DNA of 64,000 nucleotides from Candidatus Daviesbacteria bacterium (GTDB lineage: Bacteria; Patescibacteriota; Microgenomatia; Daviesbacterales; UBA10151), in assembly GCA_028715175.1 (NCBI GenBank), contig JAQUSJ010000001.1, positions 674,386 to 738,385 on the forward strand. Reading direction: 5' to 3'. Made by a program: the position numbers and the translations under genes. A model generated the notes under the pieces. It was not told the origin of the DNA, made no database searches, and was given only the letters and a program-made list of their open reading frames with translations. Positions 4,487 through 59,080 of this stretch are shown here, piece after piece; positions within the stretch are counted from its first letter, which is position 1, and every line of letters begins with the position of its first letter.

Positions 4487-4545
4487 ATTTGTATTGATAC
4501 CCTTCGATTTCACTCAGGGCAGGCCTGCGGATTTTTAAGACTTAT

Positions 4546-4938
4546 TTAATTCTTAATTTGATGGGCAATAATGGGGACTGCTTCAATTCTTTTAAATCTT
4601 TTTTCATGATCAGTAGTAGTTTTATCTACTTCACTTGCAAATTCCATAATGGTATCAACCTTGGTATTTAGTTCATCTATCTTTCTTCCTAGATTAATAC
4701 CTAAATCTGCTATCTTCCTTCCCAATCTGCTATCAACTTCGTCTATCCTGCTATCAACTTCGTCTATCCTGCTATCAACTTCGTCTATCCTGCTATCAAG
4801 CCTACTCTCAAGCCCTTTTAGATCCTGCTTAGTAGCTAATCCTTTGAGATCTTTCTTAGTAACTAAAGACTTACTTAGTCTGGATGCTAGTTTAGCGATA
4901 TCTTCATCGTTCATAGATTGATAGTAAGACAAGCACAT
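4546..4938 (-). CDS. hypothetical coiled-coil protein with heptad tandem repeats (DSRIDEV x3)
   Basis: 130 aa. The repeat block is encoded by a 21-bp unit x3 at 4741..4803. Confidence 0.45.
   Translation of the reverse strand: MCLSYYQSMNDEDIAKLASRLSKSLVTKKDLKGLATKQDLKGLESRLDSRIDEVDSRIDEVDSRIDEVDSRLGRKIADLGINLGRKIDELNTKVDTIMEFASEVDKTTTDHEKRFKRIEAVPIIAHQIKN
4722..4803. repeat. 21-bp tandem repeat (GTCTATCCTGCTATCAACTTC) x3 plus a partial copy, in frame
   Basis: Read directly from the sequence; encodes the repeated DSRIDEV heptads. Confidence 0.8.
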
Positions 4939-4964: not shown

Positions 4965-7712
4965 TCAAAACTGTTCTAAAAACTTTTTAATTTTATCCCT
5001 ATCCCTTTTTAGCCACTCTGCATTTGAATAAATTTGCTCCAGGGCTTGGGCGACAGTCCTCTTGGCTTCCGGCACAGGGTTTTTGGCAATAAAGTTTTCA
5101 ATATCAGAAGCATCTGAAACTTTTGTAAAATTACCCATTGGCAAAAAGATTCTGGGGAAGATATGTCCTCCGGCATATCTTTCTTTCAAGAGTTCCCAGT
5201 TCCTTTTGACAAACTCCCAAGCCAAGTACCGGCCCGCAGGATTATTCCAGACTGCTGCTATAATTTGCAATGAATTCTGGAACCTGACATGTTTGGAAAT
5301 GGCAAAATCCAAAGTCTTAGAAAGAAAAGTTTCGCTCTTAAATTTACCCAAAGCCCGACCAATTCTATCTTTCTCCTGCTGGTTATCTTCTTCTTTATAC
5401 ATCGCCATCAAAGTATCAAACTCTGTCTTTCCCCCATTTTCTGCTGCCAGATTATAGACAACACTCCGGAGATCCGGATCAATACTTTTGTCATTCTGAG
5501 GAGTCTTCGACGAAGAATCTCTCAACTTGTTTGAGATGTTACTGACATTCGTCAGAGATCCTTCACTACGCTCAGGATGACACAAAGAGGAAAATAGTTC
5601 CTGTGCTTTTTGGATTATCCCTTTATCACCAAAGGATCCCAATTTATACAAAACCAAACCACGAAGTAGTAAATCTGTATGTTTTTCCCCAGCCTTTTTC
5701 TGCCAGCCCATTTCTTTAACAATACTGCTAAAAATCTGCCTCCCGTAACTTCTAAAATTTTCGTAAAAAGGCTCATAGGCTAAAAGTGAATCTAACTCAC
5801 TCAAATGCTCTGTCAACACGCTCCAGACAGTGTAATCTTCTTCCGTTGCAAAAGATAAAGCCAGTTCTAAAGCCAAGCTCGTCGGCGAATCTCCGGACTT
5901 TGCCAGATCAAATGAGTCCCTAATCAAGCCTAACCTATCCGGTGCAGACAGTTTTCCATCTTTGATTGCCTCTTCCAGTCTTTTAAGATATTGCTGCGGA
6001 TAATCCACTCTGACTAAGGATGCTTCTCCTGCATTTAATTTAATCCATTCATTATCTTTAAGCCCTGGAAAGGTGATTGACTTTTTATCCATTAATAACC
6101 AGTTGTCATTGTGAGGATCCGGCGAAGCCGGAGACGAAGCAATCCGCCACGGCGGATCGCCACGCTTCGCTCGCGATGACATTATTTGTACTGGTATTGA
6201 CCAAACAGCATTATCTTTAGTTTCTTTTTTAGATATTGGACTTCCGAAGAATCTGGATTGAGTTAGCTGTAACCTGTTACCTGTAACCTGTAACCTTATC
6301 ACCGGATGACCTGGTTTTTGGGTCCAGTTCCTCATCAACTCTGCAACCGGTTTTTTAGACACCTCTGTTAAAGCTAGCCACAAATCTTCAGTCTTCGCAT
6401 TGCCATATGAGTGCTTCTTTAAATAATGTTGCAGCCCTTTTTGAAAAACTGCCGGTCCGAGATATGACATAAGCATGCGCAGAACCGATGCTCCTTTTGA
6501 ATAGCTAACCTTGTCAAAAATCTCGGAAATCTCTGCCGGATTACCAACTTCTACTTCAATCGGGTGGGTATTTTTCAAAGCATCCAAAGAGTAAGCAACT
6601 CCCATCTCCTCTGCCACAAATTGAGTCCAGATATCCCACTCAGGGAAAATATGATCTATAGCCAGATATTCAATGAATGAGGCAAACCCCTCATTAAGCC
6701 ATAAATGAGTCCACCACTCCATGGTTACCAAATCACCAAACCACATGTGGGCCAGTTCATGTGCAATCACCAAAGCTACCCATTGTTTATTGGCCGTGGA
6801 AGATCTTTCCTCATCAATCAAAAGCGTTGATTCACGGTAAGTAACAGCTCCCCAGTTCTCCATTGCTCCTGCGGCAAAATCAGGAATGGCTATCATATCC
6901 AACACCGGCAATGGATAGTCTATATCAAAATAGCCTTCGTAAAAATCCAGGCATTTCCTGGCTACATCCAAAGCAAACCTTGCTTGCTCTTTTTTTCCTT
7001 CAGTTGTAAAGACCCTTACCACTTTTCCCTTATCACTTTTCCCTTCCACATATTCAAACTCCCCCACAATAAAGGCCAAAAGATAGGTGGACATTTTGGG
7101 GGTGGGAGCAAATTCCACCATCTGATAACCGGATTCATGTTCTTTAACCACAGTTTCAATCGTATTTGATATGGCTGTGGTACCAGTTGGAATCATTAAA
7201 GTCACATCAAAAATAGCTTTCTGGGAAGGCTCATCAAAACAGGGAAAAGCCCGTCTGGCATCAGTTGATTCAAATTGGGTGGTAGCCAAATGTTTAGAAA
7301 TCCCCGCCATCTCGTATCGGGAACGGTAAAAACCTCTCATTTTATCGTTTAGGATTCCTTTAAAAATAAGTTTTAGCTTGCCTTTGCCCTTTTGGATTTG
7401 TTCTGGAAAAGTAAAAGTGGCTGTTTCCATTTCCTTGTTATACGAGATCTTTCCAGCCCAAATCTCTCTGTTGCCATGAATGAACTCAGCACTTTCTATT
7501 TCCAGTTCAATAGCATGGAGGGTAATTTGTTTAGTCGGCTTTTCCAGAGAGAGAAAAATTGTTTCCTCTCCGGTAAAGGTAAATTCATTCAAATCAGGCT
7601 TGAGCATGATTTTATAAGGAAATCTTGAAAACTCTCTTGAAAGGTTTACTTTCAAGCTTAGCTTATAACGCTCGGGCTTAACATGAGCCGAGAGCCTGAC
7701 ATTCTTTTTCAT
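4965..7712 (-). CDS. pepN: aminopeptidase N (M1 family zinc metallopeptidase), carrying in-frame repeat insertions
   Basis: GAMEN motif (AAGAMENWGAV) and HELAHMWFGDLVTMEWWTHLWLNEGFA (HEXXH-18-E). 915 aa. Contains palindromic element copies and a heptamer array (see repeats). Confidence 0.9.
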   Translation of the reverse strand: MKKNVRLSAHVKPERYKLSLKVNLSREFSRFPYKIMLKPDLNEFTFTGEETIFLSLEKPTKQITLHAIELEIESAEFIHGNREIWAGKISYNKEMETATFTFPEQIQKGKGKLKLIFKGILNDKMRGFYRSRYEMAGISKHLATTQFESTDARRAFPCFDEPSQKAIFDVTLMIPTGTTAISNTIETVVKEHESGYQMVEFAPTPKMSTYLLAFIVGEFEYVEGKSDKGKVVRVFTTEGKKEQARFALDVARKCLDFYEGYFDIDYPLPVLDMIAIPDFAAGAMENWGAVTYRESTLLIDEERSSTANKQWVALVIAHELAHMWFGDLVTMEWWTHLWLNEGFASFIEYLAIDHIFPEWDIWTQFVAEEMGVAYSLDALKNTHPIEVEVGNPAEISEIFDKVSYSKGASVLRMLMSYLGPAVFQKGLQHYLKKHSYGNAKTEDLWLALTEVSKKPVAELMRNWTQKPGHPVIRLQVTGNRLQLTQSRFFGSPISKKETKDNAVWSIPVQIMSSRAKRGDPPWRIASSPASPDPHNDNWLLMDKKSITFPGLKDNEWIKLNAGEASLVRVDYPQQYLKRLEEAIKDGKLSAPDRLGLIRDSFDLAKSGDSPTSLALELALSFATEEDYTVWSVLTEHLSELDSLLAYEPFYENFRSYGRQIFSSIVKEMGWQKKAGEKHTDLLLRGLVLYKLGSFGDKGIIQKAQELFSSLCHPERSEGSLTNVSNISNKLRDSSSKTPQNDKSIDPDLRSVVYNLAAENGGKTEFDTLMAMYKEEDNQQEKDRIGRALGKFKSETFLSKTLDFAISKHVRFQNSLQIIAAVWNNPAGRYLAWEFVKRNWELLKERYAGGHIFPRIFLPMGNFTKVSDASDIENFIAKNPVPEAKRTVAQALEQIYSNAEWLKRDRDKIKKFLEQF
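5489..5582. repeat. Family-A palindromic element, composite inverted pair (TGTCATTCTGAGG…GAAGAATCTC // GAGATCCTTCACTACGCTCAGGATGACA), in frame in pepN
   Basis: Read directly. Translated as …[30 protein letters not shown]… within pepN. Confidence 0.75.
6105..6182. repeat. Family-A palindromic element, second composite copy in pepN (GTCATTGTGAGGATCCGGCGAAGCC … GGATCGCCACGCTTCGCTCGCGATGAC)
   Basis: Read directly. Encodes …SRAKRGDPPWRIASSPASPDPHND… in frame. Confidence 0.75.
6267..6294. repeat. heptamer tandem array CTGTAAC x4 (one variant unit), in frame in pepN
   Basis: Read directly; encodes RLQVTGNRLQLTQ. Confidence 0.8.
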
Positions 7713-9211: not shown

Positions 9212-9261
9212 AAAATATTTCCTGTCATTCTAAGGCGATTAGCCAAAGAATCTCTTGATTC

Positions 9262-9310
9262 CGTGAAGATCTTTCGCTACGCTCAGGATGATTTTGCAAG
9301 CAAAATCACC
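9262..9310. repeat. Family-A element copy (…GATCTTTCGCTACGCTCAGGATGAT + TTTGCAAGCAAAATCA palindrome) at the 3' end of the metallo-hydrolase gene
   Basis: Read directly. The element encodes the last residues …QVILLAKSS and supplies the TGA stop. Confidence 0.7.
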
Positions 9311-21428: not shown

Positions 21429-22553
21429 TTAATTGCTAACCAAAAATTCAACCACATCCCCATCCTTAACCTCATAATCTTTTCCTTCAGTCCTAACCCA
21501 CCCTTTGGCCTTAGCTTCTGTATATGATCCAGCTTCTATCAATTTATCATAAGAGATAACCTGGGCCCTGATAAAATTTTTCTCAAAATCGCTGTGGATT
21601 ACCCCTGCTGCTTGGGGAGCTTTTGTTCCTCTCTTTATAGTCCAAGCCCTGACTTCTTTCGGACCGGCAGTTAAAAAAGAAATTAGGCCTAAAAGGTCAT
21701 AGGCTTTGACAATTAATCTTTCCAAACCTGTTTGATCAATCCCTAAAGTTCTTAAATATTCCAATCTTTCTTCTTCTGAATAATCAGCCAATTCTTCTTC
21801 CAATTTGGCAGAGATAACCATCTCATTCTGACCATTCCACCTCGGAGATGTAACTGCATTTTTTTCACCTCCGAGGTGTTCTGAAATTGCGCTTTCTGAA
21901 ACATTTAGAACATATAGCGTTGGTTTAATAGTCAGAAGTGGCAGGCGATCAAACCAATCCTGAAGTCTGTCATCTGCTATCTGGTATTTCCCAAGATTTC
22001 TCCCTTGATTCAACTCCTCTTTTATCTGATTTAAAATCTCTGCTTTCTGACTTGCTAGTGGATCCATTTCCTGTTTACCCGCCGAAGCTTTAGCGAAGGA
22101 GGGGGCAGCTATTAATTTTTCCAGAGTTTGAAGATCTGCCAATCCTAATTCTGTTTCCACTACCAATTTATCTGAGTCTGGATTTTCCGCTCCAGCCCGT
22201 ACCACATTTTCATCCTGAAAATCCCGCAGAACATGAATTATGGCATCCACTTCTCTAATGTGAGATAAAAACTGGTTACCCAAACCGGCTCCGGTTGAAG
22301 CACCTTTTACTAATCCGGCAATATCTACAAATTCCACCACAGCCGGAACAACAGGAGGTTTTTTTGACACCTCAGCCACCAGATCGGCCAGCTTGTTTAG
22401 CCTCTCATCAGGTACTGCCACCACCCCCACATTTGGTTCAACTGTGGCAAAAGGATAATTGGCAGAAAGAGCCACTCTTTTTTTCAAAAGAGCATTGAAC
22501 AAAGTACTTTTCCCAACATTTGGTAATCCAACTATCCCGACTTTTAAAGACAT
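21429..22553 (-). CDS. ychF: ribosome-binding ATPase YchF (Obg-like GTPase family) with in-frame palindromic insertion
   Basis: MSLKVGIVGLPNVGKSTLFNAL… G-domain, coiled-coil insert, C-terminal TGS domain. Family-B element at 21837..21878. Confidence 0.9.
   Translation of the reverse strand: MSLKVGIVGLPNVGKSTLFNALLKKRVALSANYPFATVEPNVGVVAVPDERLNKLADLVAEVSKKPPVVPAVVEFVDIAGLVKGASTGAGLGNQFLSHIREVDAIIHVLRDFQDENVVRAGAENPDSDKLVVETELGLADLQTLEKLIAAPSFAKASAGKQEMDPLASQKAEILNQIKEELNQGRNLGKYQIADDRLQDWFDRLPLLTIKPTLYVLNVSESAISEHLGGEKNAVTSPRWNGQNEMVISAKLEEELADYSEEERLEYLRTLGIDQTGLERLIVKAYDLLGLISFLTAGPKEVRAWTIKRGTKAPQAAGVIHSDFEKNFIRAQVISYDKLIEAGSYTEAKAKGWVRTEGKDYEVKDGDVVEFLVSN
21837..21878. repeat. Family-B palindromic element (CCACCTCGGAG-N19-CACCTCCGAGGTG), in frame in ychF
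   Basis: Read directly; encodes …SEHLGGEKNAVTSPRWNGQ…. Confidence 0.75.
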
Positions 22554-36059: not shown

Positions 36060-37190
36060 ATGCAGAAGTCAAAAATTAGTTATCCTTCAACAGGAGTCAA
36101 TTATAATATCATGGACCCCTTAAAAAAATTGGCCCAAAAAGCAGGCAAACAAACTGCCCAAAATCTTATCAATTTTGGGATCAAAGAAGTTGAGATGAGC
36201 CGGGGGGAATCAGCCTATGTTTGGGAAGAAGAAAATTCATACAGAGCATTAGTTGTCGAAGGTCTGGGGACTAAAAACCTGGTGGCTGATGAGATGGCAA
36301 AAATCACCGGCAAAACTTATTACAACACTATCGCCCAAGATACCATTGCCATGATTGTCAATGACATCATAACAGTTGGCGCCCTTCCTCAAATCTTAAA
36401 TGCTTATTTTGCCTCGGGTGGACCCGATTGGTTTAAGGATACAAAACGCTCCAGCGCCCTGATAGAAGGTTGGGCCAAAGCTTGTGAAATGGCGGGAGTT
36501 ACATGGGGCGGAGGCGAAACCCCGGCACTTACAGGAATTATCAACCCCCAAACAATTGACCTGGCCGGTGCTTGTATTGGCATTATTAAACCCAAAGAAA
36601 GATTAATGCTGGGAAACAAACTTCAAGATGGTGATGCCATTTTACTGATAGAAAGCAGCGGCATTCATGCAAATGGATTATCGCTGGCAAGGGCTGTTGC
36701 TGACAAACTTCCGGAAAGATATATGACAAAGCTATCTAACGGCACATTATATGGCGACGCCTTACTCGCTCCTACATATATATATGTAAACTTGGTTAAA
36801 GGTCTTTTTGACGGCGGAGTCGATATTCATTATATGGTAAATATCACAGGACACGGCTTTAGAAAATTAATGAGGGCAAACCGGGAATTTAGTTATGTTA
36901 TCAATGAATTACCCGATCCTCAACCAATTTTTAAGTTTTTACAGCAACAATCCGAAAGTAGTGATAAAGATATGTATGGGAATTTTAATATGGGTGTCGG
37001 GTTTGCAATATATTTACCGGCGCAGCAAGTAGAAAAAGCCAAGGAAATAGCGAAACAACATAATTTAAAATCCTGGAATGCTGGAATAATTCAAACCGGT
37101 CCAAAACAAGTTGTAATAAGACAAGCTTCTTGCTCCGCAATAAAACCAAAAAATATTACCTTTCAAGCTGAAACTTTAGATATCCGTTAA
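36060..37190 (+). CDS. purM: phosphoribosylformylglycinamidine cyclo-ligase (AIR synthetase)
   Basis: PurM N- and C-domains, …DTIAMIVNDIITVGALPQILNAYFASGG… The TAA stop is embedded in a Family-A element. Confidence 0.85.
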   Translation: MQKSKISYPSTGVNYNIMDPLKKLAQKAGKQTAQNLINFGIKEVEMSRGESAYVWEEENSYRALVVEGLGTKNLVADEMAKITGKTYYNTIAQDTIAMIVNDIITVGALPQILNAYFASGGPDWFKDTKRSSALIEGWAKACEMAGVTWGGGETPALTGIINPQTIDLAGACIGIIKPKERLMLGNKLQDGDAILLIESSGIHANGLSLARAVADKLPERYMTKLSNGTLYGDALLAPTYIYVNLVKGLFDGGVDIHYMVNITGHGFRKLMRANREFSYVINELPDPQPIFKFLQQQSESSDKDMYGNFNMGVGFAIYLPAQQVEKAKEIAKQHNLKSWNAGIIQTGPKQVVIRQASCSAIKPKNITFQAETLDIR

Positions 37191-37215
37191 TCCTGAGCGT
37201 AGTCGAAGGACTAAT
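37186..37215. repeat. Family-A element copy (GTTAATCCTGAGCGTAGTCGAAGGACTAAT) providing the purM stop codon
   Basis: Read directly. Confidence 0.65.
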
Positions 37216-38198: not shown

Positions 38199-39179
38199 TT
38201 AAATTATATCACGTAAATTATCCATAATTCTAAGGTTAACATTTTTTGTCATATCCGGAATAAACCTTTTACCAGTTATTTTTTCATAAATCCCCATGTA
38301 AAGCCTGCTCATTTTGGCAATAAAACTTGGGGGCATCTTGGGGATTTTTCCTTTGCCAGTATATCCATGCTCTTTAAACCAAATCCTAAGAGGCTCTTTG
38401 TCATAGCTTTCCGGCTCCAACCCTTTTTTAAATTTTTCATTGTAAGTTTTCTTGACCCAATATCTTGAGGAATCAGGTGTATGAAGTTCATCAACCAGCA
38501 TCAGTTCCCCTTCATTATCAAAACCAAATTCATATTTTGTATCAACTAAAATTATACCGGCCTTATCACAAATCTTTTGTCCTCTTGCAAACAAAGCCAA
38601 GGCTGCAGTTTCCATCTGTTTCCATATCGCCGGTGTCACAATTTTTCTTTGTATGATATCTTTTTCGCTTAATTTTTCATCGTGATGTCCTGATTTGGCT
38701 TTAGTGGTAGGAGTAATTACAGGTTTTGGCAACTTTTGGTTTTTTCTTAAACCTTCTGGAAATTTAATGCCGTAAATTACTCTTTCTCCTTTTTCATAAG
38801 ACCCCCAAATTGATGTATCTGTCACACCGGTGATATAACCTCGAACGACCATTTCAACAGGAATAACCTGGCAATTCTTAACTACCATTACATTTGGATC
38901 CGGCACACAAAGTAAGTGGTTTTGAATAATATCAGAAGTTTTATTAAACCAAAAAGCTGAAAGCTGATTAAGGACTTGCCCTTTAAATGGAATATAACCT
39001 AGGACATGATCAAAAGCAGATTGCCGGTCAGTGGTAATGATCACTCTTTTATCATCTAATTCATAACTGTCCCGGACTTTACCGCTATATTTCTTCCCCA
39101 AATTCGGGATATCAACTGTTTTAAGTACATGAGCGATGTTTTCTATAATTATTCTTTTAGCAACCATATCTTGCGTCAT
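38199..39179 (-). CDS. purC: phosphoribosylaminoimidazole-succinocarboxamide synthase (SAICAR synthetase, long form)
   Basis: …GKVRDSYELDDKRVIITTDRQSAFD… 326 aa. The ATG overlaps the purE stop as ATGA. Confidence 0.9.
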   Translation of the reverse strand: MTQDMVAKRIIIENIAHVLKTVDIPNLGKKYSGKVRDSYELDDKRVIITTDRQSAFDHVLGYIPFKGQVLNQLSAFWFNKTSDIIQNHLLCVPDPNVMVVKNCQVIPVEMVVRGYITGVTDTSIWGSYEKGERVIYGIKFPEGLRKNQKLPKPVITPTTKAKSGHHDEKLSEKDIIQRKIVTPAIWKQMETAALALFARGQKICDKAGIILVDTKYEFGFDNEGELMLVDELHTPDSSRYWVKKTYNEKFKKGLEPESYDKEPLRIWFKEHGYTGKGKIPKMPPSFIAKMSRLYMGIYEKITGKRFIPDMTKNVNLRIMDNLRDII

Positions 39180-39206
39180 TGCGAGGAGTGTAGCGACGTG
39201 GCAATC
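39174..39206. repeat. Family-A element copy (CGTCATTGCGAGGAGTGTAGCGACGTGGCAATC) spanning the purE/purC junction
   Basis: Read directly. Encodes the purE C-terminal …IATSLHSSQ, its TGA stop and the overlapping purC ATG. Confidence 0.75.
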
Positions 39207-39682
39207 TTTTTCGCTTTTTCCTCCACATCCTCTACCAATTTCTTTTTATATGCCGCAATTTTTTCTTCCAAATTTTTATCAGAAGTTGCTAAAATTTGTA
39301 CTGCTAAAAGCCCAGCATTTTTGGCGCCATTAATAGCAACTGTTGCAACAGGCACTCCCGGCGGCATCTGCATAGTTGACAAAAGTGAATCTACCCCGTT
39401 TAATGTTCCACTTTGTATTGGAACCCCAATTACCGGCAAAGGAAACTCTGCTGCTATAACCCCTGCCAAGTGCGCTGCCATTCCTGCGCCGGCAATTATA
39501 ACTTTTACTCCTTCTGTTTTCGCTTTTTCTACCAACTCTTTAGTTCTTTCCGGAGAGCGATGAGCTGAAGAAATTGTCATTTCATACTCCACCCCAAACT
39601 CATCTAAAACTTTGCCGGCATTACACATCACTTCTAAATCAGAATCCGAAGCAGCGATAACGAGCACTTGCACGCTTTTCAT
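39176..39682 (-). CDS. purE: N5-carboxyaminoimidazole ribonucleotide mutase
   Basis: …VLVIAASDSDLEVM…TISSAHRSPERT…VIIAGAGMAAHLAGVIAAEFPLPVIGVPI… is a canonical PurE. Confidence 0.9.
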   Translation of the reverse strand: MKSVQVLVIAASDSDLEVMCNAGKVLDEFGVEYEMTISSAHRSPERTKELVEKAKTEGVKVIIAGAGMAAHLAGVIAAEFPLPVIGVPIQSGTLNGVDSLLSTMQMPPGVPVATVAINGAKNAGLLAVQILATSDKNLEEKIAAYKKKLVEDVEEKAKKIATSLHSSQ

Positions 39683-44795: not shown

Positions 44796-46205
<1,410 letters not shown>

Positions 46206-46206
46206 T

Positions 46207-47805
46207 TTATTCCCATTCCATAGTGGCCGGGGGTTTGTTGGTGATATCGTAAACCACACGGTTTACTTCACGAACTTCATTTACAATTCTTGTTGAAATT
46301 TTTTCTAAAAGATCAAAAGGAAGTTTAGCAAAATTGGCAGACATGGCATCTTGGGCTTCAATGGCTCGAATAGCAATTGTTTCCCCATACGCTCTTTCGT
46401 CTCCTCTGACTCCTGTTGTTTTAATTCCTGTAAAAATTGCAAATACTTGCCAAAGATTTTTAGCTAAATCAGTTTTTTCAATTTCCTGCTGAATAATTTT
46501 ATCTGCTTTTCTTAAAATTTCTAATTTCTTTTCAGTAATTTCACCAATAATTCTTACTGCCAATCCCGGTCCTGGAAAAGGTTGTCTATTTAAAATTTGC
46601 TCAGGCAATCCCAAAATCTTCCCAATTTTCCTGACTTCATCTTTATAAAAATTCCTTAAGGGTTCTATTAAAACAAGATTCATTTTTTTAGGTAAAGCCC
46701 CGACATTATGATGTGATTTAATCACTCGTGCATGTTTGGTGCCGGCACTTTCTATCACATCAGGATAAATGGTACCTTGGACCAAAAATTTTGCTCCACT
46801 TTCTTTAGCTAATCTTTCAAAAACCTCAATAAAAATTTTGCCTATTACTTTTCTTTTTTGTTCAGGATCTGCTACCTCTTTTAATGCTTTTAAGAATTCT
46901 TTTTTTGCATCTATAATTTTTATATCCATATTGTAATGTTTGGCAAAAACCCCTCTTAAGGTATCTGTCTCACCATCTCTCATCAATCCCGAATCTATGT
47001 AATAACAAGTTAAATTTTTACCAATGGCTTTATAAACTAAAAGAGCAGCTACCGAAGAATCCACCCCGCCAGACAGTGCGCATATTGCTTTTTCTCTTCC
47101 TACAGAATCTTTAATATCGGAAATTATATTTTCTACAAATTTTTCATCTATTGTTGATCTTTTGGGATTTAATCCGCAGATCTTTAAAAAATTTTCCAAA
47201 ATTTCTGTTCCAAATTCCGTATGCATAACTTCGGGATGAAACTGTATTCCATATATTTTTTTATTTTTATTTTCCACAACAGCATGAGGAATTGTTTTTG
47301 TAGTAGCAATTGTCTCAAAATTCTCTGGTATTTTAACGACCTCATCACCATGACTCATCCAAACCGTGATACCACTTGGAACTGTGGATAATAAATTAGA
47401 AGATTTTTTTATAGTAAGTTCTGCCGGACCATATTCTTTTTTATACCCTGGTTTAACTTCGCCACCCAAAAGCTGACACATTAACTGTTGTCCGTAACAA
47501 ATACCTAAAATTGGAATACCTAACTCAAATATTTTTTTGTCAATTGTCGGCGCGCCTTTTTCATAATCGCTTGCGATTATATCGCGACGCTTCTTGTAAC
47601 GCGGTGCGTTATAAACAGATGCTGGCCCTCCTGAAAATATTATTCCTTTTACTTTCTTGTCATTCTGGAGCCCTTCGCTACGCTCGAGGGTAAACTCCGC
47701 GATAGAATCTTCCGGTGCAACAATTTCACAATCCACCCCCAACTCTCTTATTCTTCTCCCAATCAAATGCGCTGTTTGCGATCCAAAATCAACTAAGACA
47801 ATCAC
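46207..47805 (-). CDS. guaA: GMP synthase (glutamine-hydrolysing), with in-frame palindromic insertions in the GATase domain
   Basis: MIVLVDFGSQTAHLIGRRIRELG…, GICYGQQ (catalytic Cys), SGGVDSS PP-loop, C-terminal …PPATMEWE. Confidence 0.9.
   Translation of the reverse strand: MIVLVDFGSQTAHLIGRRIRELGVDCEIVAPEDSIAEFTLERSEGLQNDKKVKGIIFSGGPASVYNAPRYKKRRDIIASDYEKGAPTIDKKIFELGIPILGICYGQQLMCQLLGGEVKPGYKKEYGPAELTIKKSSNLLSTVPSGITVWMSHGDEVVKIPENFETIATTKTIPHAVVENKNKKIYGIQFHPEVMHTEFGTEILENFLKICGLNPKRSTIDEKFVENIISDIKDSVGREKAICALSGGVDSSVAALLVYKAIGKNLTCYYIDSGLMRDGETDTLRGVFAKHYNMDIKIIDAKKEFLKALKEVADPEQKRKVIGKIFIEVFERLAKESGAKFLVQGTIYPDVIESAGTKHARVIKSHHNVGALPKKMNLVLIEPLRNFYKDEVRKIGKILGLPEQILNRQPFPGPGLAVRIIGEITEKKLEILRKADKIIQQEIEKTDLAKNLWQVFAIFTGIKTTGVRGDERAYGETIAIRAIEAQDAMSANFAKLPFDLLEKISTRIVNEVREVNRVVYDITNKPPATMEWE
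47564..47611. repeat. cluster of small GC-rich palindromes (ATAATCGCTTGCGATTAT; AACGCGGTGCGTT) in frame in guaA
   Basis: Read directly. Encodes …NAPRYKKRRDIIASDYEK…, not expected in the GATase domain. Confidence 0.6.
47658..47709. repeat. Family-A element copy in frame in guaA (TGTCATTCTGGAGCCCTTCGCTACGCTCGAGGGTAAACTCCGCGATAGAATC)
   Basis: Read directly; encodes …SIAEFTLERSEGLQNDKK…. Confidence 0.7.
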
Positions 47806-48590
47806 GGCTTTGCCTCCTTAACAAACTTTACAATGTTTTCAAACAAAGGTAAACCTTGTGGTTTTGTAATATTTCCCCTTCGCCAGTTTGGGTGCTGTTC
47901 CACCCGGACAAAACATTCAGGATGCGGCATCATCCCTAAAATCCTGCCTGTTGTATCTGTTATTCCTACTATCGAATTTAAGGAACCATTTGGATTTTCT
48001 GGATATTCCATTGTTGGATTTCCATTTTCATCAACATATCTGAATGCCACTAAATTTTGATCTTCAATTTCTTTTAGAATTTCCTCATCGGCAATAAATT
48101 TACCTTCGCCATGGGCAATCGGCAACCAGATTATTTCATTATCCATTTCTCTCAAAAATTGGCTGTTATTTTTATTATTAACTTTAACTTTTATCCATCG
48201 GCATTCAAAATGTCCCGAATCGTTATTTGTTAAACTAACTCTCATTTTTCCAATTTCTCTAAATGGCAAAAGACCAGTCCTAACTAAAACCTGGAAACCA
48301 TTACAAACTCCCAAGATGGCAGTATTTTTTCGTTCAATAAATTTCTGCAATTCTTCTTTAAAAAATGAAGTTAGCTCAATTGCCAAAATTTTTCCGGAAA
48401 CTATGTCGTCCCCATAGGCAAAACCGCCGGGCAAAGCAAGAATTTGATAATCCTTCAGTTTTACAGAACCGTCTCTTAATTGATTTACATGCACTATTTT
48501 TGAATCCCCGCCGGCAATCTTAAAAGCATAAGCCATCTCTTCGTCTCTATTTGTCCCATCTGCTTTTAAAACTAAAACTTTTGGTTTCAT
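47802..48590 (-). CDS. purQ: phosphoribosylformylglycinamidine synthase, glutaminase subunit
   Basis: MKPKVLVLKADGTNRDEEMAYAF… and GVCNGFQ (class I GATase Cys). 262 aa. Confidence 0.9.
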   Translation of the reverse strand: MKPKVLVLKADGTNRDEEMAYAFKIAGGDSKIVHVNQLRDGSVKLKDYQILALPGGFAYGDDIVSGKILAIELTSFFKEELQKFIERKNTAILGVCNGFQVLVRTGLLPFREIGKMRVSLTNNDSGHFECRWIKVKVNNKNNSQFLREMDNEIIWLPIAHGEGKFIADEEILKEIEDQNLVAFRYVDENGNPTMEYPENPNGSLNSIVGITDTTGRILGMMPHPECFVRVEQHPNWRRGNITKPQGLPLFENIVKFVKEAKP

Positions 48591-51466
48591 GAAAACATCT
48601 CCTTCATTGGTTTCTGCCAGACTTTTTTCAAATTTGGAACTTCCGCACTAAAGAAATTCTTAACATCAATAATAGGAGCTTTTTGTGTTTTACCTAAAGT
48701 TATGTAAGGAATATTTTTGAATAATTGTTTGGCAACTTTTTCATCTTTCACCTCAACAATAAAACATCCTGTTGTCTCATTAAATAGCAACTCACTCACC
48801 TCCGAGGAACCCATTCGGCCACCTCGGAGGTGTGACGAAGTTACTCCTCCGAGGTGGATATTTACCCCGCAATTTCCCCCAACACACATCTCAAAAATAG
48901 CTGAAATTACCCCACCTTCAGATATATCATGACATGACAATATTTGTCCATTTCGTATTCCCTTGTAGATTGCATCAAAAGTTTTTGGCAGTAACTTTAG
49001 GTCTATTCTTGGAACAGAATCTGTCTCCAGATTATTTACTTGATGATATACAGATCCTCCTAAATTCTTATCCATTTCCCCAACCAAAACAATTGTTGAA
49101 CCGACCTTTTTCAAATCGGCAGTAACAGTCTTTCTTGTATCCTCTATTTTCCCTAGAACCGAAATGCAAAGCGTTGGTGGAATTTTAATAACGCTTCCAT
49201 CTGCCCCACGGTAAGTTGAAGACAGGCTATCTTTACCGGAAATCACCGGAATTTTAAAAATTTTCATAAAATCCACCACCGCATCAACTGATCTATCAAG
49301 CGACCAAAGAGACTCTTGATCTGGAAAAGGCCAAATATAATTGTTTATTAAAGAAGCATTTTTGTAGTCTCCGCCAACTGCGACAAAATTTGATAAGGCT
49401 TCAGTCGCTGCCCAGATACTTCCCCAGTATGGATCTATATTATTAAAAACCGGATTTAATCCGTGTGAAATAATCATGCCATATTGTTTGGAAAGTACGG
49501 GACGCAAAACCGGAGAATCATTAGGCCCATCTAAATTTTTTCCTGAATATGGCTGAAGGTCATTTGTTCCCTGAACTAAATGGTCATACAACCGGACAAT
49601 TGGCTCTTTTGAACAGACATTTCCGTGAGATAATACTTTTCGCAAAACCTTGATCCATTCTTCCTCTGATTTTGGTTGTATTGGTTCTTTGATCTGACGA
49701 CTGACGACTGACGACTGACGACTTGCTTTCAAAACCCGTTTCGGCAACCCATGGTGCAAAAACTGCATATCCAAATGGCCCACTACTTTACCACCAAAAT
49801 AAACTTTTAATTTTTTACTGCCATCAAATTTTCCTAAAACCGTACTTTCAACATTATATTTTTTACAGATCATTTCAAAAACCTTAAGGTTTTTCGGATC
49901 CAATACTACAATCATTCTTTCCTGTGATTCTGACAAAAAAATTTCCCAGGGAGCTAAACCTTGATATTTTAAAAGGGCATTTTTTATGTCAACCGTAACT
50001 CCTAAAGTTTCACCAATCTCGCCAATGGCAGATGAAAATCCTCCTCCGCCGCAATCTTGCACTAACCTTATTAAATCTTGATCTCTTGCTTCAAGCAGCG
50101 CATCAAACATCCGTTTTTCTTCAATTGCGTTTCCGATTTGCACTGCCGAAGAGTGTGTCGTATAAGTATCTGCAGTCATTTCCCCGGACGAAAAGGTAGC
50201 ACCATGAATCCCATCCCTGCCAGTTCTACCCCCTACACAAATTATTAAATCATTTCTTTCAGGTTTATCTTTTATCGCATATTTTTTTGGCACTATTCCA
50301 TATGCTCCTACAATAACCGTTGGTCTAGCCCTAAAATCTTTGTGAAAATGGACTGATCCGTTATTAGTAGGAATCCCCATTCTGTTTCCGTAATCCCTTA
50401 CCCCTGAAACTACTCTTTTCAATAAATATTCCGGTGGAAGACATCCTGCTGGTAACTGGGAAGCCGGCAAATCAATCGGAGCAAAACAAAAGATATCTGT
50501 TGAGGCAATATTTTTGGCTCCTTTACCTGTTGCAGCAATGTCGCGGAACACTCCGCCTGATCCGGTCATCGCTCCACCATATGGCTCAATAGCTGATGGA
50601 GCATTATGGGTTTCGACTTTACCACAAATCCCAAAACCGCCGTAGAAATCCATCACACCCGAATTGTCAACAAATGCTGAAACAATATTTTTATCATGCT
50701 TTAGCGCTTCTTTTTTCAATCTATCAATGAGCGGCTCTTTCTTTTTTCCATCAACTAATAACTCAGCTTTAAAAGTTTTATGCCCCGAGTGTTCACTCCA
50801 AGTTTGGGCTAAAGTTTCCAGTTCTAAATCAGTGGGGTCCCTTTTTTCTGCTGCAAAATATTCTTGGATCTTTTTCATCTCTTCCAAATTAAGAAAAAGC
50901 TGATCTTTAGATAAATCCCGCAACTCTTGATCATTCAAACTTCTTATAGGAATTGTTTGAATTTTGCCAGGTTGTCCTTTCAAAATAAGCGTTTGCGGCT
51001 CATCTTTCACGATATGCTCGATAAGCGAGTTATAGAGTTTCAGTTTTTCTACGATCTTTTCGACTTCTGCTTTTTTTAAGCTTCCGTAAAATGCATACTC
51101 AAAGGATGAATCGCATGCCGGCAGTTTAATTCCCAAATCATCTGCAGCTTTGATAATGGATGTAACTTCCGGATTCATCACCCCTGGCTTGTAAGCTATT
51201 TCAATAATCACAGACTTCACCTCCGAGGTGGGCTTTGACTCCTCGGAGGTGGAATTAATCGTATATCTTTGATTAATTGATTCAGATAATAATTTTTCAG
51301 CCAAAATTTTGGCCTCTTTTTCAGATATTCCTTCCAATCTATAAACTTTGATCGCAGAAACTCTGGTAATATTTTTAATTCCCAACATCCGATGGATGTC
51401 ATTTAAGATACCATCTCCTTTTAAATCTGGTCCAACTATTGTTTGTACTCTGACTTTTTGTATCAT
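48587..51466 (-). CDS. purL: phosphoribosylformylglycinamidine synthase: tandem PurS-PurS N-terminal domains fused to PurL (FGAM synthase II)
   Basis: Two PurS-like ~75-aa modules at the N-terminus, then a small-PurL body. 959 aa. Family-B palindromes in frame at 51218..51252 and 48797..48857; heptamer array at 49694..49721. Confidence 0.9.
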   Translation of the reverse strand: MIQKVRVQTIVGPDLKGDGILNDIHRMLGIKNITRVSAIKVYRLEGISEKEAKILAEKLLSESINQRYTINSTSEESKPTSEVKSVIIEIAYKPGVMNPEVTSIIKAADDLGIKLPACDSSFEYAFYGSLKKAEVEKIVEKLKLYNSLIEHIVKDEPQTLILKGQPGKIQTIPIRSLNDQELRDLSKDQLFLNLEEMKKIQEYFAAEKRDPTDLELETLAQTWSEHSGHKTFKAELLVDGKKKEPLIDRLKKEALKHDKNIVSAFVDNSGVMDFYGGFGICGKVETHNAPSAIEPYGGAMTGSGGVFRDIAATGKGAKNIASTDIFCFAPIDLPASQLPAGCLPPEYLLKRVVSGVRDYGNRMGIPTNNGSVHFHKDFRARPTVIVGAYGIVPKKYAIKDKPERNDLIICVGGRTGRDGIHGATFSSGEMTADTYTTHSSAVQIGNAIEEKRMFDALLEARDQDLIRLVQDCGGGGFSSAIGEIGETLGVTVDIKNALLKYQGLAPWEIFLSESQERMIVVLDPKNLKVFEMICKKYNVESTVLGKFDGSKKLKVYFGGKVVGHLDMQFLHHGLPKRVLKASRQSSVVSRQIKEPIQPKSEEEWIKVLRKVLSHGNVCSKEPIVRLYDHLVQGTNDLQPYSGKNLDGPNDSPVLRPVLSKQYGMIISHGLNPVFNNIDPYWGSIWAATEALSNFVAVGGDYKNASLINNYIWPFPDQESLWSLDRSVDAVVDFMKIFKIPVISGKDSLSSTYRGADGSVIKIPPTLCISVLGKIEDTRKTVTADLKKVGSTIVLVGEMDKNLGGSVYHQVNNLETDSVPRIDLKLLPKTFDAIYKGIRNGQILSCHDISEGGVISAIFEMCVGGNCGVNIHLGGVTSSHLRGGRMGSSEVSELLFNETTGCFIVEVKDEKVAKQLFKNIPYITLGKTQKAPIIDVKNFFSAEVPNLKKVWQKPMKEMFS
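48797..48857. repeat. Family-B palindromic element cluster (CACCTCCGAGG / CCACCTCGGAGGTG / CCTCCGAGGTGG), in frame in purL
   Basis: Read directly; encodes …HLGGVTSSHLRGGRMGSSEVSE…. Confidence 0.75.
49694..49721. repeat. heptamer tandem array CTGACGA x4, in frame in purL
   Basis: Read directly; encodes …SRQSSVVSRQ…. Confidence 0.8.
51218..51252. repeat. Family-B palindromic element (CACCTCCGAGGTGGG-N8-CCTCGGAGGTGG), in frame between the two PurS modules of purL
   Basis: Read directly; encodes …TSEESKPTSEVKS…. Confidence 0.75.
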
Positions 51467-57679: not shown

Positions 57680-59080
57680 TCACAACTTACTAATAATTCT
57701 AGGACCAGCTGAGGTATCCTCTATCTCATATCCTAATTTTTTGATTCTGTGACGGAGTTGATCAGATTCTTTAAAATTACCTGCTTTTCTGGCTTGCTCC
57801 CGCTTTTCAACCAATTCCATCACGTTTTTAGGGACTTCTATTGATTTGCCTAAATATTCATCTAATTTTAATCCCAAAATTTTATCCATTTCCAAAATAC
57901 TTTTGGCTTTGGCAGATGTTGGACACTCGGATCTAACCATATCCCACATCACAGCCAGTGCTTGTGGCATATTTAAATCATAATTTAGCGCATCCATAAA
58001 TTTTTGATAATAAGATTGCCACGCCCCTTCGGGGCTCGCAATGACAGAAGAAGGTAAATCTCGGATAATCTCCCTTAAATTATCCAAGGCATTTTGGGCT
58101 GCCTCCAAACTTTTCCAGGTAAAATTTAATTTATCTCTATAATGGGCTGTTAAAAACAAGTACCTGAGAGCCAGTGGGTCAAATCCTTTCTGTTCTATTT
58201 CATCTATTTTATAAAAATTCTTTTTTGATTTACTCATTTTTTCTCCATCAACCAATAAAAATTCAAAGTGCACCCAGAATCTTACAAACTGCTTTCCTGT
58301 AGCTGCCTCACTTTGAGCAATCTCATTTGTGTGATGTACTGGAATATGATCAATACCTCCTGTATGAATATCAAGGCAGTCATCCAGATATTCCATACTC
58401 ATAGCAGAGCACTCAATATGCCAGCCGGGAAATCCCTCGCCCCAGGGAGACGGCCACCTCATGCTATGGTCTTTAAAATGCCCTACTGTAAAAAACCAAA
58501 GCGCAAAATCATACGGGTTTTTCTTTTGCTTATCTACCACCACATCAACCCTTACTCCAACTTGCTTTTCCTGCAATTTTTGTCCTGATAATTCTGTATA
58601 GTTTGGAAATTTACTTATATCAAAATAAACTGCCTGGTCTGTTTGATAAATAAAACCGTTTTTTTCTAACTTATGAATTAATTTAATCTGTTCTGCAATA
58701 TGATCTGTAGCTTTAGCAACAATACTTGGTCTTTCTATATTAACCGTATCAACCGATTTCCAAAAATAATCTTCAAAGAATTTGGCAACTTCCCAGACAG
58801 TTCTACCGAATTCCCTTGCTCCTTTTTCCATTTTATCCTCACCCGAATCTTCGTCAGAAACCAAATGTCCCACATCAGTGATATTCATCACATGTTTAAC
58901 TTCATATTTATTAGCTTCCAGAATTCTTCTTAAAATATCGTTGCCTACATATGTACGAAGGTGACCAATATGGGTATAGTCGTAAACAGTTGGTCCGCAA
59001 GAATACATACCCACCTTAGGTGGATTTAAAGGAGCAAATTTTTCAATCTTTCGGCTTAATGTATTATAGAGGTTTAACAT
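57680..59080 (-). CDS. cysS: cysteine--tRNA ligase
   Basis: HIGH (YTHIGHLRTYV), KMSKS (KMSKSKKN), zinc-binding Cys (YSCGPTVY) and the CysRS anticodon-binding C-terminus. 466 aa. Confidence 0.9.
   Translation of the reverse strand: MLNLYNTLSRKIEKFAPLNPPKVGMYSCGPTVYDYTHIGHLRTYVGNDILRRILEANKYEVKHVMNITDVGHLVSDEDSGEDKMEKGAREFGRTVWEVAKFFEDYFWKSVDTVNIERPSIVAKATDHIAEQIKLIHKLEKNGFIYQTDQAVYFDISKFPNYTELSGQKLQEKQVGVRVDVVVDKQKKNPYDFALWFFTVGHFKDHSMRWPSPWGEGFPGWHIECSAMSMEYLDDCLDIHTGGIDHIPVHHTNEIAQSEAATGKQFVRFWVHFEFLLVDGEKMSKSKKNFYKIDEIEQKGFDPLALRYLFLTAHYRDKLNFTWKSLEAAQNALDNLREIIRDLPSSVIASPEGAWQSYYQKFMDALNYDLNMPQALAVMWDMVRSECPTSAKAKSILEMDKILGLKLDEYLGKSIEVPKNVMELVEKREQARKAGNFKESDQLRHRIKKLGYEIEDTSAGPRIISKL

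Follow-up and report, generated by a model that had tools for sequence, protein, structure and literature searches.

The purE/purC junction

In the stretch of Candidatus Daviesbacteria DNA analysed here (64 kb, called the window), a short palindromic repeat sits across the border of two purine genes, and this raises the question of whether the repeat was taken into service as their translational coupling junction or was only tolerated where it landed. Sequence lookup in the window placed the 33-mer CGTCATTGCGAGGAGTGTAGCGACGTGGCAATC exactly at 39174-39206 on the plus strand, and the genes around the junction are all on the minus strand. The features of the junction are as follows.

39174..39207, plus: CGTC-tagged REP unit, classed by sequence, repeat pattern and architecture against PMC3733652
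39174-39177, plus: REP tag CGTC
39178-39182, plus: REP 5' arm ATTGC
39183-39199, plus: REP core, purine-rich, with a GTGTAGC mini-hairpin
39200-39204, plus: REP 3' arm GCAAT
39205-39207, plus: REP tail CTT
39176..39682, minus: purE (N5-CAIR mutase), ORF of 168 aa with the AIRC domain at residues 5-149
39179..39205, minus: PurE tail IATSLHSSQ, 27 nt of translated REP
39176..39178, minus: purE stop TGA, opposite the TCA of the REP tag region
39177..39179, minus: REP-borne ATG overlapping the purE TGA (ATGA), the purC start in the NCBI annotation
39165..39167, minus: ancestral purC start codon (MVAKRIIIENI...), which aligns with the purC starts of relatives
38199..39179, minus: purC (SAICAR synthetase, SAICAR_synt domain), longest ORF, starting at the ATG of ATGA

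The 3' end of purE reads ...AAG ATT GCC ACG TCG CTA CAC TCC TCG CAA TGA on the minus strand. From the REP to the ancestral purC ATG the letters are ATG ACG CAA GAT ATG G, a distance of 12 nt in frame, and the purC product has 326 aa from the REP ATG and 322 aa from the ancestral ATG. The NCBI products agree (PurE, MDD5416104.1, 168 aa; PurC, MDD5416103.1, 326 aa). Thus the letters, the ORFs and the NCBI annotation confirmed the claim of the sequence-only reading that the element encodes IATSLHSSQ, the purE TGA and the overlapping purC ATG. The purB/purE junction in the window is an ATGA overlap too, and other operon neighbours there overlap by 1-8 nt.

A family of tagged repeats in the window

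The exact 33-mer occurs only once in the window, but its ends, GTCATTGCGAG... and ...CGTGGCAATCTT (11 nt and 12 nt, identical), recur at 58014-58046 on the minus strand in cysS, where they enclose another core (CCCCGAAGGGG) than in the purE copy. The family was counted with the pattern YGTCAT-N3-GAR...N3'-ATC, in which N3' is complementary to N3, and 200 shuffles were used as the baseline. This analysis gave 9 tagged matches in the 64-kb window against 0.08 expected, and the matching 3' arm was present at 9 of the 10 sites with tag and GAR, so the repeat status of the family is far beyond chance.

The three variable stem bases covary among copies (TGC/GCA, CCT/AGG, TCT/AGA, CGC/GCG), and the apex is almost always C-GNA-G (CGAAG, CGTAG) between G.A/A.G mismatches, therefore the hairpin is strand-asymmetric. 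The stem has five Watson-Crick pairs, then the G.A/A.G mismatches, two to four more pairs and a 3-nt GNA loop, and the arms reach about 9 nt only when the mismatches are counted; the core of the purE copy is about 17-18 nt. All nine tagged window copies have the form AT-NNN...N'N'N'-AT, with the stem beginning A-T at positions 1-2. The tag is CGTC in the purE copy and TGTC in the 8 other tagged window copies, and the tails are CTT, CTC, CCG and CCC. Every family copy has a GTCAT/ATGAC terminus, including the copy at the purE end of locus L004 and the copies that are missing from the sister genome described below. Other units in the window are listed here.

58014..58046, minus: closest paralogous REP copy (TGTCATTGCGAGCCCCGAAGGGGCGTGGCAATCTT), in frame in cysS, peptide SSVIASPEGAWQSYY
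5489..5582 (5489-5521 plus, 5555-5582 minus): inverted REP pair, in frame within the M1 aminopeptidase ORF
6104..6181 (6104-6146 plus, 6153-6181 minus): inverted REP pair, in frame within the M1 aminopeptidase ORF
44834..44919 (44834-44861 plus, 44890-44919 minus): inverted REP pair upstream of purA
9215..9291, minus: REP dimer filling the MBL-hydrolase/dnaB spacer, with the MBL stop TGA inside
47658..47711, plus: long REP variant (…GGAG-CCCTTCGCTACGCTCGAGGG-TAAACTCCGCGA…), with the architecture of the purE REP of sister contig L001
37191..37209, plus: untagged 19-nt minimal hairpin (TCCTGAGCGTAGTCGAAGG) between the convergent purM and prs stops

Four of these are inverted pairs (5489-5582, 6104-6181, 44834-44919 and 9215-9291). 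Units lie at the ends of purE, the MBL gene and purM/prs, and others within the coding sequences of cysS and the M1 peptidase; both orientations relative to the genes occur. The peptides of REPs inside window coding sequences include VIASPEGAWQS, ..PQNDK and ..PHNDN. The cysS copy lies between the catalytic and DALR domains, and in an alignment with solved structures it falls in a variable linker.

For the pair upstream of purA the predicted fold is much more stable than in shuffles (-42.6 kcal/mol, z -7.1). By itself, the purE copy was no better than shuffles, with -9.5 kcal/mol and z -0.2 in the sense direction and -7.5 kcal/mol and z +1.15 in the mRNA sense. That this copy is no unusually stable hairpin in standard energy models is a point against the explanation that we prefer below. 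A generic hairpin scan of the window gave 83 hairpins versus 83.6 in shuffles, so generic hairpins are not enriched and only the tagged pattern is specific. Rfam, at the gathering threshold and at E<=5, gave no family overlapping any repeat copy in the window, where the one true match was tRNA-Leu, and Pfam on a subset of the window ORFs gave housekeeping domains and no transposase domain. Likeness to a hammerhead, k-turn, C/D-box or CRISPR repeat was dropped by eye, with the core motifs incomplete. Literature searches with the element DNA and the encoded peptides returned primers and noise only.

The repeat at the end of purE is an insertion

The best PurE and MBL hydrolase homologs all belong to Daviesbacteria/Patescibacteria. 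Among the best 120 PurE homologs, a tail like IATSLHSSQ is missing in 117, and related tails were seen only in P0001 (..KKIATSRSLH*), P0011 (..RKITTSLRSSQ*) and P0015 (..RKIATSLRSSQ*). The other homologs have 158-166 aa and ends such as ..KLE*, ..KI*, ..NLENK* and ..KLENDQ*, the closest element-free relatives in this set have the C-termini ...KLE* or ...NLENK*, and homology to solved PurE structures ends at residue 160 (..EKAKKI). At every tail-bearing locus checked, a complete REP was present in the DNA. The claim that an inserted repeat forms the end of purE was therefore borne out, and orthologs that share the C-terminus carry the repeat signature as well. A chance resemblance to the repeat consensus, with a native PurE tail, has nothing further in its favour than the uniqueness of the exact 33-mer in the window, and is refuted by the identical ends common to the cysS copy, the 117 tailless homologs and the full REP at all tail-bearing loci.

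A scan of genome contigs with full-length PurE was dominated by universal PurE motifs and gave only one Daviesbacteria locus, and a metagenome search with the PurE C-terminal alignment gave mostly distant relatives. In locus L004 a Na+/H+ exchanger, not purC, follows purE, and the REP end still reads ...CTCGCAATGAC; this is a short contig, and a mis-join at the repeat is possible. In a weak neighbour-joining tree of the 156-residue core, the window and P0001 are nested among the element-free P0002-P0005, and P0011 and P0015 form a separate pair, which suggests two gains of the purE REP, or one gain and later losses.

The finding that all copies end in GTCAT/ATGAC supports the reading that the purE TGA and the overlapping ATG are probably element-borne. 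An insert of about 33 nt that brought ATGAC with it is favoured over one of 27 nt placed in frame beside a pre-existing AAATGAC, because other polymorphic copies carry their own ends. Deleting the 27 nt leaves AAA AAA TGA (..KK*). If only 27 nt had been inserted, the ATGA would be a pre-existing target and not element-borne, and a REP-free site reading ...AAATGACGCAAGATATGG is what such an ancestral or target ATGA would look like.

Presence and absence of units in a sister genome

The sister genome GCA_028712705.1 has two contigs, L001 and L131, that cover about 31 kb of the window. Nucleotide identity is about 88-96% in the main aligned blocks and lower in places, and PurE is 95% identical. 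Several units differ between the two genomes. The 19-nt untagged unit between the purM and prs stops is present in the window and absent from L001, whereas a 30-nt unit in frame in a purP-like coding sequence is found only in L001. A 72-nt inverted pair in the M1 aminopeptidase is present in the window (ORF of 915 aa) and absent from L131 (873 aa), and both ORFs are intact. The REP dimer in the MBL/dnaB spacer is in the window and not in the sister genome, a 24-nt unit near 4525 is in the window only, and a dimer at about position 3110 of L131 is in L131 only. These presence/absence differences within about 31 kb indicate that the family was recently active in a CPR lineage, and it would be mobile, or at least gained and lost over a short time.

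The tagged polymorphic insertions supply their own GTCAT/ATGAC ends, and the empty sites are without them. AAGAT flanks the purE insert in the window and in locus L085, and ATCTY is part of the 3' consensus of the family; no target-site duplication was seen at the other copies or polymorphic sites. TCAT as an IS200/IS605-like insertion target found no support, since GTCAT/ATGAC arrives with the polymorphic dimers themselves and no TCAT is needed where untagged minimal units insert. The C-GNA-G apex and the G.A pairs argue for recognition of the unit as a single-stranded DNA hairpin.

The overlap of purE and purC is older than the repeat

Element-free relatives already overlap purE and purC by ATGA (L086, aaATGAtt; L087, gaATGAta; L005, aaATGAtt; L114, aaATGAtc), element-free L003 has a TAATG overlap, and the overlaps are longer in others (L089, L091). 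Thus the predicted coupling by overlap is ancestral and predates the REP, which did not create it. The overlapping purC ATG of the element-free relatives aligns with the second ATG of the window (39167-39165). With MVAKRIIIENIAHV-LKTV there are 14 residues before LKTV in the window, as in L086, L114, L089, L091, L005 and the called start of L001, and a lineage with a short N-terminus has 4 residues in L003 and L087 and 4 from the second ATG in L085. Comparison of C-termini and purE-purC spacing with element-free relatives, which the sequence-only reading had proposed as a check, therefore came out in two ways: the tail is specific to the element, but the overlap was there before.

The old purC start of the window now reads ATGG, so the old TGA is gone. 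The ancestral ATG itself is intact and in frame, and purC could start there without the REP-borne ATG, although the latter could be the only start used. No obvious Shine-Dalgarno-like sequence was found before either purC ATG (mRNA, CUCCUCGCA). In L085 the REP ATG likewise lies 12 nt upstream of the old ATG and in frame (ATG ACA AGA TGT ATG G), with ATGA kept, and this same arrangement in two independent lineages, the window and L085, could reflect selection. In L001 the REP at purE has a core 24 nt longer than that of the window, with the architecture seen at 47658-47711, and its purE stop (..IATSRSLH*) lies inside the REP, with the REP ATG 24 nt and the ancestral ATG 36 nt further downstream and no overlap. 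The gene caller took the ancestral ATG as the purC start of L001. The inner part of the REP at purE differs freely between the window and L001, and the REP-made overlap, which is not conserved in this sister, gives no evidence of selection.

Stop codons supplied by other copies

The same reading had named two further genes whose stops were donated by the element, and only one of them stood. The window MBL hydrolase ends in ..ILLAKSS*, with its TGA (9283-9285) inside the CCTGAGCG of the dimer (also given as TCATCCTGAGCG), whereas the MBL gene of the sister genome is without the dimer and ends in ..VVVLNKS* at a TAA, so this stop does come from the element. The same dimer occupies the same site in a 78%-identical Daviesbacteria species (L132-L135), and the ..KSS* tail was found in 19 of the 60 best MBL homologs listed. 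At purM, the 19-nt hairpin lies exactly between the purM TAA (37188-37190, plus) and the prs TAG (37211-13, minus). In L001, purM and prs end at the same codons with their stops one T apart and the unit absent, so the purM TAA was not donated and the window has simply gained 19 nt.

How often a unit ends a gene was seen in 133 short-form copies recovered from IMG/VR viral contigs. In 33 of the 133, an antisense ORF of at least 60 codons ends at the tag TGA, which is about one third of the long ORFs that enter a copy on that strand. This is the random-frame expectation, so these ends are a by-product. Of the six frames across the short unit only the one that ends in the tag TGA is closed, and stop donation is an automatic outcome of landing site and frame. 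On the phage-like contig L177, an 81-aa ORF (..EIASLRSQ*) overlaps a 124-aa ORF matching PHROG 5 (tail completion/Neck1) by a REP-borne ATGA, and this is one independent candidate junction of this type.

Explanations of the junction

We consider it likely that the purE/purC junction is a tolerated by-product of the insertion of a CGTC-type REP, and not an adaptation, with the coupling older than the insertion. A REP unit would have landed antisense on the extreme 3' end of purE and replaced a short, unconstrained native tail with nine REP residues, and PurE would now end at the TGA that lies opposite the GTCAT end in all units of the family. The ATG of the same end would have recreated the 4-nt ATGA overlap 12 nt upstream of the old purC start and in frame with it. 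Ribosomes that reach the REP UGA would most likely reinitiate at the overlapping AUG, by which PurC is lengthened with MTQD, or 8 nt further on at the ancestral AUG. In a genome that is 95% coding, such an insertion may have been tolerated when its frame happened to meet the REP TGA, and because the extreme C-terminus of PurE is unconstrained, as shown by tails that vary freely among relatives; the other two frames would fuse PurE to PurC or run into purC. The comparisons show the family features of the unit, its insertion, the earlier overlap, the kept ATG and the overlap lost in the sister, whereas the neutrality and the reinitiation route of the purE/purC REP are what we infer from them.

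That the REP-made ATGA is a functional coupling junction kept by selection, with PurC made from the REP-borne ATG, seems unlikely, although several findings are in line with it. ATGA is intact in the window and L085, NCBI annotates the REP ATG, which is in frame, as the purC start, and the lack of a Shine-Dalgarno-like sequence at either ATG makes reinitiation at the overlapping AUG mechanistically reasonable; the ATGA of another copy joins the 81-aa ORF to the Neck1-like gene on L177. But the coupling is older than the REP, the ancestral ATG is kept 12 nt downstream, at the same REP of L001 the overlap is gone and the ancestral ATG is the start called there, and ORFs end at the tag TGA as frequently as in a random frame. 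The statement of the sequence-only reading that the repeat had been co-opted as the coupling junction was for these reasons not upheld.

A wider idea, which we regard as improbable, is that the GTCAT end (ATGAC on the other strand) is a portable stop-plus-start cassette, or that ATGA junctions are preferred targets. If this were true, CGTC REPs could spread, with no polar effects, into operons that are tightly coupled, as in the streamlined genomes of CPR bacteria and phages, and some copies, such as those at purE/purC and at the L177 phage junction, would be a working coupling signal.

Very improbable in our view is a regulatory role in cis for the hairpin, as an RNA or DNA structure (attenuator, mRNA stabiliser or ribosome-stalling REP) that would tune the purE:purC ratio. 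In E. coli, ribosome stalling can be caused by REPs that lie within 15 nt of a stop codon (PMC12306157), and the AU of the REP ATG lies within the 3' arm of the stem. However, the fold in the mRNA sense is weak and no better than shuffles (-7.5 kcal/mol, z +1.15), the G.A-rich hairpin forms on the opposite strand only, copies are found within coding sequences and in either orientation to the genes, and a comparison of the window with L001 shows that the inside of the REP varies freely.

With the by-product reading, purE/purC is a case in which a REP took the place of a stop/start overlap and left the operon unbroken, which is an example and no new principle. For the annotation of REP-rich genomes, including Daviesbacteria, the tails ..IATSL(R/H)SSQ* or ..KSS* and the N-terminal extension MTQD are repeat-derived, as are inserts of 10-40 residues within conserved enzymes, and such tails, extensions and inserts should not be taken as lineage-specific protein features.

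Comparison with known repeats

Two superfamilies of prokaryotic REPs, tagged GTAG and CGTC, have been distinguished (Di Nocera, De Gregorio & Rocco 2013, BMC Genomics 14:522; PMC3733652). The CGTC superfamily includes Neisseria dRS3 (CGTC-1) and Rickettsia RPE-4 and RPE-6 (CGTC-4/CGTC-1 in R. conorii), its tag has the variants TGTC and CCTC and its consensus tail is CCA, and it is described with frequent inverted dimers, some intragenic copies and no dedicated transposase (PMC3733652). The units of the window appear to fit this superfamily by an unpaired YGTC tag at one end (CGTC/TGTC) and a stem starting with A-T at positions 1-2; their 3-nt tail may correspond to that of the superfamily, and they share with it the many dispersed copies, the inverted dimers and the sites at ORF 3' ends and within genes. 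In the 133 copies on viral contigs, GTCAT is preceded by C (57%) or T (39%), together 96%, and the tail has C at its first place, C or T (55/41%) at its second and A or C (55/36%) at its third, which is CCA-like. Near-identical 26-mers were found on at least 120 IMG/VR contigs and at loci labelled Acidobacteria, Thermoanaerobaculia and deltaproteobacteria.

There are also differences. CGTC families have perfect stems of 8-9 bp and loops of 4-5 nt (PMC3733652), whereas here a 5-bp Watson-Crick stem is followed by tandem mismatches, and the apex is a C-GNA-G mini-hairpin, or the cores are longer and nested. Tails in the window read CTY or CCN, against CCA in the superfamily. The host is a CPR bacterium, from a group without sampling in the 2013 survey of CGTC repeats. 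We therefore regard the family as a variant of the CGTC REPs in a phylum that was unsampled in 2013; such units are probably selfish, non-autonomous hairpin repeats without a known transposase.

Neisseria dRS3 has the form ATTCCC-N8-GGGAAT and is an integration site for IS110-type recombinases and prophages. It shares the layout of tag, AT and tail with the window units but is described with 8-bp stems and 4-nt loops (PMC3733652). Like Rickettsia RPE-4 and RPE-6, the window units are short palindromes that lie in frame within protein genes and are translated, as seen in the M1 peptidase, whose ORF stays intact, in cysS and in the purP-like coding sequence of L001; PurE homolog P0100 carries an insert, SLEFSLRSNS. 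The R. conorii CGTC-1 peptides VIPAKAGI and DSRFCRND (supplement of PMC3733652) imply GTCAT.../...AATGAC ends, as do the window peptides. RPE-4 and RPE-6 differ from the window units in stem and loop sequences and in their alphaproteobacterial host, and for them no case of a stop/start overlap was reported.

The repeat terminus of GTAG REPs also gives the flanking ORF its stop codon, and their termini "often provide" TAG stops (PMC3733652); E. coli REPs near stop codons are similar in position. Unlike TAG of the GTAG REPs, the stop at the window is a TGA from the complement of the CGTC-AT end, with an ATG on the same end. Stop codons from REP ends and intragenic REPs were known before; the finding holds but is an ordinary one. 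Its relevance to REP biology lies in the recent activity of the family in a CPR lineage, which bears on two questions left by the 2013 survey, the continued formation of CGTC repeats and the agent of their movement (PMC3733652).

REP units inside coding sequences

Besides the purE-purC junction, we found REP units (palindromic hairpin repeats with an unpaired YGTC tag) within the reading frames of the following genes:

4965-7712 (-), M1 aminopeptidase ORF, 915 aa, with inverted REP pairs at 5489-5582 and 6104-6181
57680-59080, cysS (cysteinyl-tRNA synthetase), with a REP unit at 58014-58046 (-)

Both pairs of the aminopeptidase were in frame, and of the peptides encoded by them one ended in ...KTPQNDKS, while the other was ..IMSSRAKRGDPPWRIASSPASPDPHNDN. 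The sister MAG (GCA_028712705.1) had an intact M1 aminopeptidase of 873 aa, without the 72-nt pair found at 6104-6181. The unit in cysS was translated as SSVIASPEGAWQSYY, which sits in the linker from the catalytic domain to the DALR domain, and alignment to solved CysRS structures put it in a variable region, which leaves it a putative insertion relative to orthologs.

A 10-residue insert, SLEFSLRSNS, was also observed within the C-terminal helix region of a PurE homolog of 175 aa (P0100). Its back-translation gives a unit of the GAGCGAAGCGA type, the stem being ATTC/GAAT, so this insert is a further case of a REP in purE, from a separate lineage.

Variation of REP units between related genomes

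Two places hold a long form of the REP, whose middle stem is GGAG...CTCC and whose core contains an antisense minimal unit:

47658-47711 (+), long REP variant in the window
5690-5745 of L001 (a sister MAG contig), the same long variant, here as the purE REP

The purE REP of the window was 24 nt shorter than that of the sister MAG, and this length difference may come from deletion, nested insertion or gene conversion between copies.

The spacer between the MBL-hydrolase gene and dnaB is filled by a REP dimer:

9215-9291, REP dimer in the window
about 3650-3725 of L132-L135 (another Daviesbacteria species), REP dimer

Since this dimer is common to the window and the 78%-identical species, but absent in the 94%-identical sister MAG, its distribution reflects either recurrent insertion at one site, or loss, or recombination between lineages.

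Minimal hairpins and unrelated repeats

Untagged minimal hairpins of 19-30 nt share the core TGAGYGWARTCGAA:

37191-37209, minimal hairpin
about 4525-4550, minimal hairpin
about 1323-1352 of L001, minimal hairpin

Their stems of 3-4 bp differed (TCC/GGA, CCC/GGG and GTCC/GGAC). Comparison of the window with the sister MAG showed these hairpins to be polymorphic, and one of them was in frame within a CDS.

A second palindromic family, unrelated to REP, is built on CACCTC(C/G)GAGGTG and mostly paired; there was also a tandem repeat:

21840-21876, 48799-48854 and 51220-51249, CACCTC(C/G)GAGGTG family
about 4275 of L131 (sister MAG) and after purE in L112 (another compared locus), same family
4727-4799, 21-nt tandem repeat CTGCTATCAACTTCGTCTATC, at least 3 exact copies, inside ORF 4546-4938 (-)

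Palindromes of the second family were hosted by long ORFs, namely the YchF GTPase and a 959-aa ORF (48587-51466), and this family was likewise polymorphic when the window was compared with the sister MAG. The entire region of ORF 4546-4938, which holds the tandem repeat, was missing from the sister MAG (gaps of 131 and 284 nt).

Distribution in viral contigs and other hosts

The 26-mer GTCATTGCGAGCG(A/T)AGCGAAGCAATC was found in at least 120 viral-labelled IMG/VR contigs (L136-L2xx), and 120 of 133 copies among the matches listed had a TGC/GCA stem. One phage-like contig carried a family copy with an ATGA junction:

about 2065-2095 of L177, REP copy with ATGA stop/start overlap

This ATGA links an 81-aa ORF, whose tail reads ..EIASLRSQ*, with an ORF of 124 aa that matches PHROG 5 (tail completion/Neck1), which makes the junction a second candidate REP-borne stop/start overlap. 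Related units were held by loci labelled Acidobacteria, Thermoanaerobaculia and deltaproteobacteria (L015, L016, L047 and L048). For a REP, such sequence conservation between hosts is unusually high.
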